Shown here: in pieces, positions 53,986 through 57,864 of the stretch | How positions within the stretch are numbered: position 1 is the first letter of the stretch | Layout of the letters: the number at the start of each line of letters is the position of its first letter | From: an uncultured archaeon | Lineage (GTDB): Archaea; Thermoproteota; Bathyarchaeia; Bathyarchaeales; Bathycorpusculaceae | Assembly: GCA_963782915.1 (NCBI GenBank) | Contig: CAWALK010000001.1 | Location: forward strand, 64,001 to 128,000 | Direction of reading: 5' to 3' | Length of the DNA: 64,000 nt | Program-made: the position numbers and the translations under genes | The notes under the pieces: generated by a model | Database searches by the model: none | Told to the model about the DNA's origin: nothing | What the model saw: the letters and a program-made list of their open reading frames with translations, nothing else

Positions 53986-54150
53986 ATGGCAGAAAATAGA
54001 TATGAACATAAAGACCGTCATAAACGGGAACGCCGTGAGCAGTTTAAGTTTGATGAGGATATGCGCTTAAACGATGAAATTGATCGGCGTGAGCGTGAGC
54101 AAAGACAACGCGAAGAGCTTCGGCATCGGCATGTGTTAGTGGCTCAGTAA
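53986..54150 (+). CDS. Small highly charged (R/E/H-rich) protein, 54 aa
   Basis: Manual translation MAENRYEHKDRHKRERREQFKFDEDMRLNDEIDRREREQRQREELRHRHVLVAQ. Confidence 0.5.
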   Translation: MAENRYEHKDRHKRERREQFKFDEDMRLNDEIDRREREQRQREELRHRHVLVAQ

Positions 54151-54256
54151 ATGGGTGTTGGCTTCGTTTGAGTGGGCGGAAAAATACGTAAGATGCTAAG
54201 GGAAAGTTATTTTAAAAAAATTGAAAACGGAAAAATCCGTACGTTTAATTGTAGTA

Positions 54257-55129
54257 TTATGGCAGAACATTTGTTATAATCAATCGCCATTCTTCGCCGT
54301 AAATCCCAGCAGTAACCCAGTAAGCTTGCTTGGTTACCGTTGTACCCGCATTATCGTAGTTGTAATATTCGTAGGTGCCATACCCCGCTGCTTCAGTAAC
54401 CATATGTCTTGAGAATGTTTGCAGCGTTGACCAGGTTGAGATGGTTGGGTCAGCGAATAGGTTTGTGCCCTCTTCGGCTTTGTTTACTTCGTAGATCATT
54501 GTGCCATCCGTATCAGATGCCCATATGACATAGGAGGTTCCCGCACTTACTTCTGTGGCGGTGGCGTTGATTAGGGCACTAGCATCGAAAGCTATGCTTA
54601 CTGAACCGATCATTGCGCCGTTAGAGTTGAAGATTGGTGCCATTATTACTGAACCGTTAACTCCTTCTTCAAGTTGATAGACAGGTGACATTATGGGGTA
54701 TATTGGGTCTTTTGAAGGTGCGAAAATGTCGTAGGGCATTGTTACCTTTGAGCCTTCAAGGTTGCTGTAGGTTGCTGGTTCTACGGTGACAAAGGTGCCC
54801 TGTAGGTCTAGGGTGCTTACATCAATTATGAAGGAATAGTTCTGGGCTATTGATTTCAAGAGGTTGCGTGCTTGTTCGCCGCCTAATCCTGTGCCTGAGA
54901 TCTGTTGGGAGGCGTATATGGCGCTGTTGCCTAAGGCTTGAAGCTCAGAGTTTATTTTTACTTGGGCTTGGGTTAAAATTGAGGTCATTTCTAGTTTGGT
55001 TGTTTGTTGGGTGTTTTGGTTGGATAGGGTGCTGTTTTGGGTGGCTTGGTAGGCGTTAAATCCTATGGAGGCTACTAAGGCGATGATTAATGTGCTTACT
55101 ATTAGTGTGGATTTGTTCATTTTTACCAA
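54257..55129 (-). CDS. Membrane-anchored dCache-like extracellular sensor domain without an output domain
   Basis: Single N-terminal TM; P.MS.VY..EG...APIF...G..IG.VS; D.DG..IY...G.NL; G..Y.Y...K...W; ends at WRL. Confidence 0.65.
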   Translation of the reverse strand: MVKMNKSTLIVSTLIIALVASIGFNAYQATQNSTLSNQNTQQTTKLEMTSILTQAQVKINSELQALGNSAIYASQQISGTGLGGEQARNLLKSIAQNYSFIIDVSTLDLQGTFVTVEPATYSNLEGSKVTMPYDIFAPSKDPIYPIMSPVYQLEEGVNGSVIMAPIFNSNGAMIGSVSIAFDASALINATATEVSAGTSYVIWASDTDGTMIYEVNKAEEGTNLFADPTISTWSTLQTFSRHMVTEAAGYGTYEYYNYDNAGTTVTKQAYWVTAGIYGEEWRLIITNVLP

Positions 55130-55262
55130 CTTATCGTTTGCTGATTAATGGAAATTTGTAGCTTATAAATCAGCAATTGAAGCGGTGTTGCACGGCTTTT
55201 TCCACATTTAGCGATGTCCCAAATGGTGCAAAGATGCCTCTTTTTGGTGCATTAAAGTCACA

Positions 55263-55272
55263 AAATATATAA
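55263..55272 (+). promoter_or_regulatory. BRE/TATA box for the putative ncRNA
   Basis: AAATATATAA about 25 nt upstream of the closing stem. Confidence 0.55.
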
Positions 55273-55293
55273 TTTACCTTGCGCCATATGATA

Positions 55294-55528
55294 TTTGCAG
55301 GTCAAGGAGCAAGCTTTAGAAGCAATGCACTGAGGCACAGATGCACCCTGATTAAAACAGCGAAAAATTGGGGTGCGATAAAGACTTCGCCTCATTGGGC
55401 TGAACCGTTGCTATGTTGAAGCATCTGAGCATTGAAGTCTCGGGTTCAAAGCGGCGAAGAATCCGTTGGCGAGTAAGCATCGCTTAGGTGGGCCGTATCA
55501 ACAATAGGGCTTAGGCTTGGCCTGCAAA
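55294..55528 (+). ncRNA. Putative novel multi-helix structured RNA
   Basis: 13-bp closing stem, five internal helices, 7-bp loop-loop complementarity; G-U pairs favour the + strand; no ORF. Confidence 0.65.
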
Positions 55529-55653
55529 AAAACTGTGGAAGACAAATTGAGTAGGATAAAACCGAAAATATTCTATTCCACCTTTTTTTGATTTAACCTG
55601 TCTTTAAATCGTGTGCCTTATGGAAATTAGACTATTTACTTGTGGATTTTGCC

Positions 55654-55770
55654 CAACCTGTCTGCAACGTAAAACAGACGTAGGCACCAAAACACAAAAA
55701 ACCCCCCAAACCATTGGTTGTTGTTGTGTATAGGGGCTCTGCGCCAACAACTACTATAGAAGAAACCGCA
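55654..55770 (+). repeat. Dispersed repeat family B, copy 3
   Basis: CAACC..TGCAAC..CAGACG..CACCAAAA, then TTGGTTGTTGTTGTGTATAGGG 60 nt later, then CAACAAC. Confidence 0.75.
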
Positions 55771-55844
55771 AGCGAACATACACCTGTTTTTAAGCTAAAG
55801 GTTTAAAGGCAACGCATTAACTTATTGTGCAAAAGGTGTAAAAT

Positions 55845-56009
55845 ATGCCAACTCACGGTTCACTCTCAAAAGCTGGAAAAGTGCGCACTCAAACTCCCAA
55901 AGTTGAGGCACGTGTAAGAACTGCTCCAAGCCCAAAAAACCGAAACAGACGCAACTACGAAAAACGTACGATTCTGCAACGGAAAGCGGGCCAAAACTGG
56001 ATGACTTAA
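55845..56009 (+). CDS. rps30e: Ribosomal protein eS30 (below the ORF track cutoff)
   Basis: Manual translation MPTHGSLSKAGKVRTQTPKV...RNRRNYEKR. Confidence 0.95.
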   Translation: MPTHGSLSKAGKVRTQTPKVEARVRTAPSPKNRNRRNYEKRTILQRKAGQNWMT

Positions 56010-56191
56010 GTCCAATACTTTTCCATTCTGCATTTTAAGCAGATACATTTTGTTTTATGCTTAACCTTTTTGCATAGTGCTAACTCTAATTTCGCTTTAA
56101 TTAAAAAAGATGTTATCGCTTCACTGTACCGTTGCCGCTTGTTGTTATTGGGTCTATGGTCGACAGATTCTTTGTTTTTCTCCGTAAACAT
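56006..56191 (-). CDS. Possible small Cys-rich protein
   Basis: 61 aa with C...H..KCICLKC. Confidence 0.35.
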   Translation of the reverse strand: MFTEKNKESVDHRPNNNKRQRYSEAITSFLIKAKLELALCKKVKHKTKCICLKCRMEKYWT

Positions 56192-56264
56192 TGCCTTTTT
56201 AAAACCATTTTTGGCTAGTGCACTTTATCTATCGGTAATCTAAACTCTATTTCGGTACCCAGAT

Positions 56265-57864
56265 TTGACTAACACAGTTGCCCTGCGCGAAATCATCACA
56301 AGACTGCTTTCTATGGATTCCCCCACAGGCGACGATGTCAACAAACTAAAAATTAAGGTCTCAGCCAAATACCACCTGGAAGCGGTACCATCCAACGCTG
56401 ACTTACTTACAGTTTTAACTGATTCAGAATCAAAAAAACTTCTGCCGATCATCAGAAGAAAAAACACCCGAGCCATCAGCGGCGTAACCGTCATCGCCGT
56501 CATGACCAAACCCTACCCGTGCCCGCAACCTGAACCCTGCGCTTACTGCCCCGGAGGACCAACCACAGGTTCGCCGCAAAGCTACACAGGATTTGAACCT
56601 GCCGCGTTGCGTGGAAGCCAAAACAGCTTCGACCCCTACGAGCAAGTGCAGAGCCGCATACGTCAACTCACGGCTATTGGGCATAAGGTGGATAAGGTTG
56701 AGTTGATTGTGATGGGCGGTACTTTTCCGGCGACGCCAATGGAGTACCAGACATGGTTCATCCAGCGTTGCCTTGATGCATTAACTGGCAAAACCTCCGC
56801 TAACTTGGAGGAGGCAGAGGCGAATGCGGAAGTCAGCGAAACCCGCAACGTCGGCATCACCGTCGAAACCCGACCGGACTGGGCAAAACAACCCCATATC
56901 GACGCCATGCTGAGCTATGGGTGTAACCCGCATCGAACTTGGCGTACAAAACCCAGATGATGAAATCTACAAACGCGTCGGCAGAACCCACACCGTCGCA
57001 GACGTAGTTGAAGCAACACAAATCGCCAAAGATTCAGGGCTAAAAATTGTTTATCACATGATGCCCGGAATGCCTGGGTCCAATCCGCAAAAAGATTTTG
57101 ATGCATTCAAACGCATCTTCACCGACTCCCAATTTAAGCCGGATATGATAAAAATTTATCCGTGCCTCGCCATCGCAGGCACCAAAGCCTACCAATGGTA
57201 CCAAGAAGGCACCTTTGAACCATACACAACCGAACAAGCAGCAAATCTAATCGCTGAAATCAAAAAAACCATCCCAAAATGGGTAAGAGTCATGCGTGTA
57301 CAGCGCGATATTCCTGCACGGCTGATTTTGGCTGGGGTAACTAAGAGTGATGTGCGGGAGTTGGCGCAGAAAAAACTCAAAGACCAAGGCATGCAATGCC
57401 AATGTATCCGCTGCCGCGAAGTTGGGCACCGTTTAGCAGTTGACCACGTTGTGCCTGATTTGGAAAAAGTCAAGATTTTAACCGAGCGTTATGAAGCTTC
57501 AGAAGGGCATGAAGTTTTTATTTCCGCCGAAGACCCACAAAACAACGTACTGCTGGGTTACCTGCGCATGCGTGTCCCATCCCCAAAAGCTCACAGACCA
57601 GAAATCACCGAAGTCCCCTCAGCCATCGTGCGGGAACTCCACGTTTACGGCCCCCTCGTCCCAGTCGGCAAACACTCAGCCACCGCATGGCAGCATAAAG
57701 GATATGGCAAAGAACTCTTGGCAGAGGCAGAACGGATTGCAAGCGCCGAGTTTGGGGTCAAAAAGCTTTTAGTTATTAGTGCGTTAGGAACAAGAAGGTA
57801 CTACATGCGTCTGGGTTACGGGCGTGATGGAGTTTACGTTTCAAAGAGGCTAAACACACAATGA
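56265..57864 (+). CDS. elp3: tRNA U34 carboxymethyltransferase Elp3 (indel near 56915)
   Basis: CP..PC.YCPGG...PQSYTG.EPA, MGGTF, ETRPD, ELGVQ, RVQRDIP, RELHVYG, QH.GYG. Confidence 0.95.

Follow-up and report, generated by a model that had tools for sequence, protein, structure and literature searches.

In a stretch of 64,000 nucleotides (nt) of DNA from an uncultured archaeon of the class Bathyarchaeia (assembly GCA_963782915.1, contig CAWALK010000001.1, positions 64,001 to 128,000; hereafter the window), we found an element on the forward strand that is, with a probability of about 0.85, an independent gene for a circular non-coding RNA (ncRNA) of Bathyarchaeia. The gene spans positions 55257-55589 (+) and its precursor element positions 55294-55528 (+), and the mature form is a circle of 202 nt. 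An earlier note, made from the letters of the window, had proposed a stand-alone RNA of about 235 nt at this place. The independent gene and its transcript are indeed there, but the product is the 202-nt circle and not a linear RNA of 235 nt.

The evidence for the circle comes from environmental RNA. We compared contigs from four metatranscriptome runs, belonging to four studies (mine drainage, sediment, peat and groundwater), with positions 55100-55900, at a likeness of at least 80%. In all four runs the RNA contigs are confined to 55313-55518, with a summed word depth of up to 42,492, and the depth is zero on 55100-55312 and on 55532-55666. Missing cover of the flanks in relatives is no evidence by itself, since the flanks are variable, and only near-identical contigs count in this respect. 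Contigs at least 99% identical to the window number 5, 4, 1 and 30 in the four runs, so organisms nearly identical to the source of the window were present in the samples. A back-joint that leads from 55514 to 55313 is present in 4/4 runs. One contig, of 233 nt, runs through 55313-55514 and then again through 55313-55340; its length is 202 + 31, which is what an assembler working with 31-mers yields for a circle. In the window's copy, four letters (GCTT) are ambiguous at the joint, and the contigs end at 55514 plus these four ambiguous letters. The loose ends of relatives before 55313 read ...CAACAATAAGGCTCAG, with ...GGCTCAG joined to GCTTTAG, and thus fix the junction between ...CUCAG and GCUUUAG. 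The RNA thus holds only the part between the two bulges described below, with G55514 joined to G55313, which makes the mature form a circle.

The ends of this circle lie in a motif of the bulge-helix-bulge (BHB) type. A BHB, as described in the excerpt of PMC7714728 used here, consists of a 4-bp helix that has a 3-nt bulge on either side, and the splice sites fall within these bulges. The precursor has a 4-bp helix with 3-nt bulges on opposite strands, enclosed by the outer helices P1a (10 bp) and Pj, and the junction lies within the bulges. The features concerned are these:

55313..55514, + strand: mature 202-nt circular RNA, with the back-joint 55514 to 55313 in RNA contigs
55307..55315, + strand: 5' half of the BHB, with central strand GAGC at 55307-55310 and bulge AAG at 55311-55313; predicted cut 55312/55313
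55509..55515, + strand: 3' half of the BHB, with central strand GCTT at 55509-55512 and bulge AGG at 55513-55515 (consensus AGA); predicted cut 55514/55515
55297..55306, + strand: P1a, 5' strand, GCAGGTCAAG; pairs with 55516-55525, 8/10 pairs compensatory and 94% of cells paired; removed with the 5' leader, 55294-55312
55516..55525, + strand: P1a, 3' strand, CTTGGCCTGC; covaries with 55297-55306; belongs to the 3' trailer and lies outside the cover by RNA contigs
55313..55318, + strand: junction hairpin Pj, 5' strand, GCTTTA; pairs with 55505-55510 (UAGGGC); the loop TTAG, 55511-55514, holds the ligation junction

The central helix, GAGC/GCUU, is paired in 100% of cells across 34 sequences, with one compensatory A-U pair. 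Among 76 distinct sequences, the 5' bulge follows A-N-G in 74, 76 and 74, position by position, and the 3' bulge follows A, G, A/G in 76, 75 and 75. All pieces of RNA contigs start at 55313 or later, and the observed ends fall after the second base of each bulge.

The enzymes for such a reaction are encoded in the same genome, which has two paralogues of EndA, the archaeal splicing endonuclease that recognises BHB motifs (PF01974 matches of 97 and 81 bits), and one RtcB (a PF01139 match of 592 bits). According to excerpts of PMC7714728, the (alpha-beta)2 EndA of TACK archaea accepts varied bulge lengths and excised introns are circularised; in the part of PMC4090602 cited here, splicing cuts leave 5'-OH and 2',3'-cyclic phosphate ends, which are fit for RtcB-type ligation. 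We infer, and the support is good, that EndA excises the RNA and RtcB ligates it: a two-subunit EndA would cut within both bulges, at 55312/55313 and 55514/55515, and RtcB would seal the cut ends to give the 202-nt circle. After ligation, the sequences that flank the junction would pair as a hairpin whose UUAG loop carries the junction. We likewise infer, with good support, that this hairpin forms only after ligation, because two of its bases sit in the BHB central helix of the precursor.

Several points weigh against this account of the circle. The RNA data are assembled metatranscriptome contigs, so they give no exact ends, strand or level, and the joint 55514 to 55313 is known from contigs of the RNA runs only. 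It is also conceivable that the circle is an intermediate stage and is opened again afterwards, as happens with rRNA. The register of the inner helix that relatives support by covariation makes the 5' bulge 4 nt long and the motif slightly non-canonical; a 3-nt 5' bulge needs a register that relatives do not support. The expected position of the EndA cut, after the second base of the bulge, is a matter of general background.

A linear ncRNA of about 235 nt with its closing stem retained, and with the joints as a minor by-product or an effect of assembly, is in our judgement highly improbable. It can appeal to a stem that is strong and covaries, and to the stability of the linear single-sequence fold (+ strand minimum free energy -85.8 kcal/mol, z -3.78, with 0/200 shuffles equally stable; the - strand has z -2.26 in the shuffle comparison). 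However, no contig in the four runs enters 55294-55312 or passes 55518, the back-joint falls exactly at the bulges in all of them, and one contig has the length of a circular unitig.

The circle also has a conserved fold. To assess it we used an alignment of 34 sequences (A1; MAFFT) that was not fitted to any structure, with 500 shuffles and slid pairings as controls, and counted a pair as compensatory where both of its sides change. On A1 the covariation model has 93.3% of cells paired, against 85.5% in shuffles, and 38/62 pairs are compensatory, against 23.8. None of the 500 shuffles matches the model on any of five measures, and the slid controls reach at most 38% paired. For a form of the RNA that has a single module (alignment A6), 89.1% of cells are paired and 37/46 pairs are compensatory, which again 0/500 shuffles reach. 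Single-sequence folds of the circle and of the precursor failed to recover the covariation model and were left aside. Inside the circle, the model comprises the following elements, all on the + strand:

55328..55402: module 1, made up of P2, P3, L3, a conserved strand and PK1
55328-55337/55388-55397: P2, 6/9 pairs compensatory
55343-55353/55366-55376: P3, 9/11 pairs compensatory
55354-55365: loop L3, apical loop of module 1
55377-55387: conserved strand of module 1, GATAAAGACTT
55358-55361/55399-55402: pseudoknot PK1, CAGC with GCTG, 99% paired and invariant within the genus
55403..55421: linker with the weak hairpin P4, pairing in 84% of cells, all changes one-sided; weak support
55422..55495: module 2, made up of P5, P6, L6, a conserved strand ...AGTAAGCAT and PK2
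55422-55429/55483-55490: P5, 6/7 pairs compensatory
55441-55447/55459-55465: P6, 5/6 pairs compensatory
55448-55458: loop L6, apical loop of module 2
55452-55455/55492-55495: pseudoknot PK2, CGGC with GCCG, 3/4 pairs compensatory

Both modules are built alike. A lower helix (P2 or P5) is followed by an asymmetric internal loop that is conserved and rich in purines (5' ANGA / 3' GNYAAAGACNU), then by an upper helix (P3 or P6) and an apical loop of about 12 nt. This apical loop reads AAAA-NNNN-GAAA, and its central four bases pair with the four bases directly 3' of the lower helix. In the single-module relatives, the homologous pseudoknot has 2/4 compensatory pairs. The junction hairpin Pj, which has 6 bp in the window, is 100% paired and nearly invariant in the genus; in single-module relatives it extends to 12 bp, of which 8/12 are compensatory. 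When the internal loop is compared with a kink-turn, the L7Ae-binding motif in which a 3-nt bulge precedes tandem sheared G.A / A.G pairs between two helices, the 5' strand, A-N-G-A, has its G in 19/19 and its A in 18/19 sequences. On the 3' strand the first base is G in 19/19, but the next is A in only 10/19, and nine more conserved bases interrupt what would be the non-bulged strand.

The two modules are also alike in sequence. Aligned to each other, they reach z 6.8 for the window's sequence and z 8.3 for the consensus, and a covariance model built from single-module relatives (R2) matches both halves of the two-module RNA. As judged from these alignments, a module that stands alone in RNAs of other Bathyarchaeia has been duplicated in tandem within this RNA.

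Part of this fold had been recognized in the earlier note. Its helix TGAGGC/GCCTCA is part of P2 and its GCACCCTGATT/AATTGGGGTGC is P3, both of which covary as listed above. The closing stem that it had drawn, 55294-306/55516-528, does pair, with the 10-bp core of P1a, but this is the BHB processing stem and the mature RNA excludes it. Its remaining pairings are not conserved on A1. A proposed loop-loop pseudoknot, AGACTTC/GAAGTCT, has 58% of cells paired, and the real tertiary pairs are the two loop-to-tail pseudoknots. TGAACC/GGTTCA (79% paired, 1/6 pairs compensatory) clashes with covarying pairs, GGCGA/TCGCT (77%) clashes with the covarying P5, AGCGG/CCGTT is 40% paired, and GGGCCgTAT/ATAgGGCTT is 72% paired with 1/9 pairs compensatory. 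Taken jointly, the loop-loop pseudoknot and these four helices are no better paired than shuffles (63.9% versus 63.6%), and the same is true of an alternative pairing, CAGATGC/GCATCTG (67.1% versus 66.4%).

The gene carries signals of its own on both sides of the precursor:

55257..55264, + strand: motif GTCACAAA, like a B recognition element (BRE), abutting the TATA box on its upstream side; the BRE role is suggested by position
55265..55272, + strand: TATA box ATATATAA, inside an A/T box at 55262-55275 whose centre lies about 27 nt 5' of the first base of the processing stem
about 55294-55297, + strand: predicted transcription start, from the position of the TATA box
55535..55589, + strand: 3' trailer, with hairpin GTGGAA 55535-55540 / TTCCAC 55576-55581 and then a T7 run at 55583-55589; probable terminator

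The TATA box and the T7 run had both been pointed out in the earlier note, and both recur. At 58/58 distinct family loci, an A/T run of 6 nt or more begins at -36 to -22 relative to the RNA start; 39 of these loci also have GTYNMAR at -38 to -36, in unrelated genomic contexts. The first run of five or more T lies 40-59 nt after the element at 25/58 loci. The T7 run with the trailer hairpin is probably a terminator. The layout of the trailer, (A)GTGGAA, a variable inner hairpin, TCCAC and T5-8, is repeated in one clade of the family, and a second clade is without the trailer motif. A palindromic operator upstream of the BRE was also considered, and was dropped with 17/58 loci versus a shuffle mean of 15.3. 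Since promoter and terminator are conserved across unrelated contexts, they mark the element as an independent gene.

The trailer bears on a further explanation, in which the ligated flanks are the functional product and the circle is a discarded intron. An 18-nt leader would be joined to a trailer of about 75 nt, giving a hairpin with a 10-bp stem and a 7-nt loop (GAGCAA joined to G), followed by the GUGGAA...UUCCAC trailer hairpin. The GAGC and the bulge A/G that would form the loop are nearly invariant, the trailer motif GUGGAA...UCCAC is conserved in one clade, and in tRNA splicing the exons are the product (as stated in part of PMC4090602). We nevertheless consider this explanation very unlikely. 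Conservation is concentrated in the circle, with its two modules, 38/62 covarying pairs and invariant loops, whereas the stem changes freely in sequence and keeps only its pairing, and the second clade does without the trailer motif. The circle is, moreover, found at high depth with nothing on the flanks, although short variable flanks would map poorly. We thus continue to regard the circle as the product of the gene.

The genes around the element vary. In the window, a gene for a sensor-domain protein lies upstream on the opposite strand, with an inorganic pyrophosphatase farther upstream; downstream, the gene for ribosomal protein S30e (rps30e) follows at 320 nt, and then an ELP3-like gene. 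A cis-acting leader or riboswitch would control such a downstream gene, here rps30e. About 6/58 loci lie upstream of rps30e/ELP3, at 4 loci a same-strand PHP-domain gene follows 57-110 nt downstream of the element, and tandem homologous modules resemble tandem riboswitch aptamers. However, the linkage to rps30e that the earlier note had taken as a guide to homologs is not general. Neighbouring open reading frames (ORFs; mechanical calls of at least 60 amino acids (aa), of which the window's own downstream call is spurious) form small synteny groups only (rps30e/ELP3/GatD; MFS/radical-SAM; tgtA/PHP), the largest cluster covering 8/58 loci, and the next called ORF is on the opposite strand at 29/56 loci. 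Across the 58 loci we thus found no constant place upstream of one same-strand gene class. In the window the T7 run and a distance of about 255 nt stand between the element and rps30e, and the RNA is excised and circularised and matches no Rfam riboswitch. The varied neighbours and the opposite-strand downstream ORFs rule out a cis-regulator for practical purposes, and we give this explanation next to no credence.

As a separate observation on these neighbours, the ELP3-like radical-SAM/GNAT gene of the window (56265-57864) is split into two overlapping ORFs, 56265-56960 and 56917-57864. It is intact in the relatives L080 and L123 (530-533 aa) and split also in L066 and L122; a frameshift, an error of assembly or a pseudogene may lie behind the split.

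We compared the element with known RNAs. With Rfam 15 (4227 models, among them RNase P, SRP, riboswitches, ribozymes and C/D and H/ACA sRNAs), the whole window gave 0 matches at the gathering score, and a permissive scan (E<=10) of 55130-55850 gave only two chance matches, with E of about 5. A scan at E<=1 of the window copy and 22 related loci (6 relatives, 7 single-module and 9 rod-type), as unrotated sequences, found nothing relevant. ARAGORN found no tRNA in 54000-57000. Elsewhere in the same genome there are a canonical RNase P RNA (184.5 bits), a canonical signal recognition particle (SRP) RNA (154.2 bits) and three 5S genes, and the element is therefore none of these. The earlier note, which had seen no signature of RNase P, SRP or tRNA, was right in this, and its suggestion of an undescribed structured archaeal ncRNA fits the lack of an Rfam match, the strong covariation and the presence of RNA contigs. 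In the open-access literature searched, we found no description of the RNA or of d0, the neighbour protein discussed below. The genome also has a second, weak match to RNaseP_arch (C25:81043-81180, L002; 33.7 bits against a cut-off of 84), with the canonical gene on C15.

A permuted or highly divergent form of a known universal RNA, repaired by circularisation like the SRP RNA of Thermoproteus, is scarcely credible to us. A precedent exists in permuted genes for SRP RNA, which BHB processing together with circularisation restores (PMC4731332, in the part cited). But the canonical RNase P, SRP and 5S genes are present elsewhere in the genome, and neither the window copy nor the 22 related loci, scanned unrotated, have even a partial Rfam match at E<=1.

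We then turn to the distribution of the RNA. Matches to the element by blastn were found in 29/36 genomes of the same genus, and a single weak match of 41 nt was found in 24 genomes from other families of the order. A covariance model of the RNA (R1) detects it in 25/151 genomes of the class, in 13/79 genera; many of these matches are 129-142 nt long and have one module only. Single-module relatives measure about 138 nt, and their circle would have 108 nt. The single-module model R2 matched in 0/131 genomes from other classes of the phylum. Conservation sets in and breaks off abruptly where the terminal stem begins and ends. When one genome per species was scanned with a pattern, 80 loci came up, of which 47 match the covariance model and 33 are chance. 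The titles of the 47 name Bathyarchaeia/Bathyarchaeota or unclassified archaea, together with one bin labelled bacterial. This bin (L073, a Limnocylindrales bacterium) holds a full-length family member, at 202 bits, on what is probably a misbinned archaeal contig.

The source genome has three copies, at 100%, 80% and 79% identity. Two of its copies are within a duplication of at least 3.2 kb, 97% identical, at contig ends (C3:1-7140 and C19:178135-182459; L034 and L035). Besides the RNA copy, the shared part holds genes for a PHP-domain protein, a small membrane protein and a secreted protein of the Kelch/beta-helix kind, and the tgtA upstream of the C3 copy is broken into three ORFs. Another genome, G052, consisting of a single contig (C1), has four members, at 275499, 729944, 740152 and 1993898 (L182, L196, L197 and L199). 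One has two modules and three have a single module, none adjoins d0, and two near-identical single-module copies stand inverted about 10 kb apart. Extra copies near full ones were seen at L025/L045 (G013:C12:34746-35064), L016 and L129:4466-4649; they comprise a tandem partial copy, two copies 850 nt apart and an inverted partial copy 1.2 kb away. Phage-integrase fragments are present at 3/58 loci.

Such copies raise the question of whether the element belongs to a virus, plasmid or other mobile DNA, or to a viroid-like replicon with a DNA copy. Genomes carry 1-4 copies in varied contexts, partial or tandem copies occur (G013, G015, L129), and in addition to the integrase fragments there are several copies close to the ends of contigs. 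A search of 2.9 million viral contigs, however, gave 3 pattern matches, none of which was confirmed by the covariance model. The flanks are ordinary housekeeping genes, and every copy has its own cellular-type promoter and BHB stem. Rfam scans of the window and of the region gave no match to self-cleaving ribozyme families, and the RNA is encoded, with a promoter, in the genomic DNA of many genomes, which is not the pattern of a viroid-like replicon. A mobile origin therefore appears extremely unlikely, and we return to a cellular gene for a circular RNA.

What this RNA does may be related to d0, a conserved protein of about 210 aa. It is the divergent upstream neighbour at 9/20 single- or two-module loci in three other families, with a gap of 78-516 nt, and the other neighbours differ among those 20 loci. 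Among the RNA-positive genomes, 23/25 encode d0, and the two exceptions are 85% and 68% complete. RNAs with the BHB cassette are divergently adjacent to d0 in 25/51 examined d0-positive genomes of the class (12 of these adjacencies were found by coordinates, 8/20 by an unfiltered model search plus the motif, and 5/19 by a further search). In several families, what the d0-adjacent RNAs have in common is limited to the stem, the BHB cassette and the junction hairpin (GGGAGCAnGCU ... GGGCUUAGAC), and their interiors are rod-like. Outside the class, family f42 has a conserved cassette RNA with its own T-run at 5/5 aligned d0 loci, and one d0 locus of another family also carries a cassette RNA. As the BHB cassette and the junction hairpin are common to all d0-adjacent RNAs, they are the likeliest site of recognition by a protein.

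The rod-type cassette RNAs beside d0 (L223, L221, L222, L050, L051 and L253-L257) come from organisms of two different classes and have a common apical motif, GAGAYAACAUCAAAC(G/A)G, a hint that, apart from the junction hairpin, another functional site may be conserved. Two pattern searches for the cassette were set aside. A loose pattern matched 96 of the 151 class genomes, mostly within coding sequence, and so was too unspecific for a table of co-occurrence; a strict regular expression missed known positives and was kept as a supplement only.

Homologues of d0 number more than 5,505, and the named ones are all labelled hypothetical. Sequence searches with d0 against Pfam and PDB gave no match. 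An AlphaFold (AF2) model from 79 sequences (predicted local distance difference test, pLDDT, 88.9; predicted TM-score, pTM, 0.85) superseded a first model from 9 sequences (pLDDT 62, with weak Foldseek matches). It has an N-terminal helical hairpin (residues 1-52) followed by an alpha/beta domain, with the alpha-beta-beta-beta-alpha-beta core of the PD-(D/E)xK superfamily. Residues 54-210 match 3dnx (Z 9.6, root-mean-square deviation 2.4, 104 residues aligned), XisH 2okf (Z 9.5), AF1548 (Z 8.4), AF2093 (Z 7.8), NucS (Z 7.3) and the nuclease domains of Can2/Cdn1 (Z 6.6-6.7). The top Foldseek matches are a CdiA-CT domain (probability 0.99) and XisH/SfsA, at probabilities of 0.87-1.0 with E above 0.001. 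The nearest named clusters in the ESM Atlas, PDDEXK_14 (0.85) and RE_AccI (0.84), are leads only. Five residues are invariant in the 79 sequences, namely E61, D88, E101, E103 and K126; what would be the third catalytic element reads ExE, and a lysine comes from the next helix. Because the modelled fold matches restriction-endonuclease-like proteins, and because of these invariant residues, d0 is probably an active or formerly active nuclease of the PD-(D/E)xK type. In the source genome, an 88-aa ORF with a GIY-YIG nuclease domain follows the d0 gene (C20, L206:2028-2729) and overlaps its stop codon, the two together occupying L206:2028-2992, and a DUF498-like gene lies upstream on the other strand.

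On the basis of these gene contexts, it is possible, though we hold it tentatively, that the circle is a stable partner or regulator of d0. An exonuclease-resistant, long-lived circle would then partner or regulate d0 by docking through the constant junction hairpin. The larger share of the odds goes to a partner other than d0, or to some other role. Several observations count against a role with d0. In the genus of the window, d0 (contig C20) adjoins none of the three RNA copies, which are the only cassettes found in this genome. In family f24, the RNA is adjacent to d0 at 0/7 loci, and coding sequence lies upstream instead. Furthermore, d0 is distributed far more widely than the RNA (74/151 genomes of the class and 59/151 of the phylum), and the canonical (D/E)xK lysine is replaced, the motif being ExE. 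A broader proposal, which we regard as doubtful, is a ribonucleoprotein found throughout the phylum Thermoproteota, in which the d0 nuclease-fold protein would be combined with a BHB-excised circular RNA; the junction hairpin would dock the protein, and the body of the RNA, which varies between lineages (a rod, or one or two pseudoknot modules), would set specificity or regulate the nuclease; the window's RNA would be one branch of this system. If this were true, a circular RNA would guide or gate the d0 nuclease.

Circularisation through a BHB is already known in archaea for tRNA introns, rRNA precursors, one 5' untranslated region (UTR) and a rearranged SRP RNA. The mechanism that forms the circle is thus known. 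Two things are new: that it is put to use for a dedicated family of abundant, pseudoknotted ncRNAs, and the link of a BHB circular RNA with a nuclease-fold protein. Here BHB circularisation serves a dedicated gene family whose only conserved product is a compact pseudoknotted circle. In RNA from four habitats the depth of this circle is very high, and it has no match among described classes. With its clear covariation, this new class of structured RNA is fit for an Rfam entry, for structure determination and for tests of processing in vitro. It is also a natural case of tandem module duplication within a circular RNA, and its link to d0, a nuclease-fold protein that is widespread in Thermoproteota and uncharacterised, can be put to the test. 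Bathyarchaeia are an abundant group, most of it uncultured, and the circular RNA is a direct handle on their biology. For surveys of metatranscriptomes it is a caution, as small circular RNAs may be misread as viroid-like agents.

Among known systems, tandem-aptamer riboswitches such as those for glycine also have two homologous modules in one RNA, and type III toxin-antitoxin RNAs (ToxI) are structured RNAs beside a nuclease gene. Unlike both, the window RNA is not cis-acting, and d0 is a single-copy, vertically conserved gene and not a mobile defence gene.

Circular RNAs of archaea provide the other comparisons, for which we draw on excerpts of the papers cited. The archaeal circular pre-16S/23S rRNAs and circular 23S rRNA (PMC12918454, PMC7038931, PMC7758197) share with the window RNA a leader/trailer stem, an adjacent BHB and the route through EndA and RtcB. 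They are 1.5-3 kb long, whereas the window RNA has 202 nt, is not rRNA (it has no Rfam match), and has its own promoter and terminator. The circles from Haloferax tRNA introns and from the HVO_1309 5' UTR (PMC7714728, in part) are likewise made by the splicing endonuclease from a BHB outside rRNA. Those circles, as that excerpt has it, are cut from within a host gene, and it is the spliced form of this gene that serves as the product; the flanks of the window RNA measure some dozens of bases, and nearly all of the conservation falls in the excised part. Archaeal circular C/D box small RNAs and the circular omega RNAs of IS200/IS605 (PMC9014305, PMC12558985, each in part) are also small circular ncRNAs, and omega RNAs are, like the d0-adjacent cassette RNAs, encoded beside a nuclease gene (PMC12558985). 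The window RNA differs from them in having neither C/D boxes nor a TnpB neighbour, and the C/D circles depend, in the cited part of PMC9014305, on an ATP-dependent ligase and not on BHB splicing. A further likeness is with the permuted SRP RNA of Thermoproteus, which is circularised after BHB processing (PMC4731332, in part): both are stand-alone ncRNA genes in which the ends of the transcript form a BHB stem, and excision and ligation give a structured circle. In the part cited, however, the RNA of Thermoproteus is the rearranged copy of a universal RNA, and the proteins that partner it are known. The window RNA matches no family, no permuted gene order is known for it, and it comes from a genome that has a normal SRP RNA besides.

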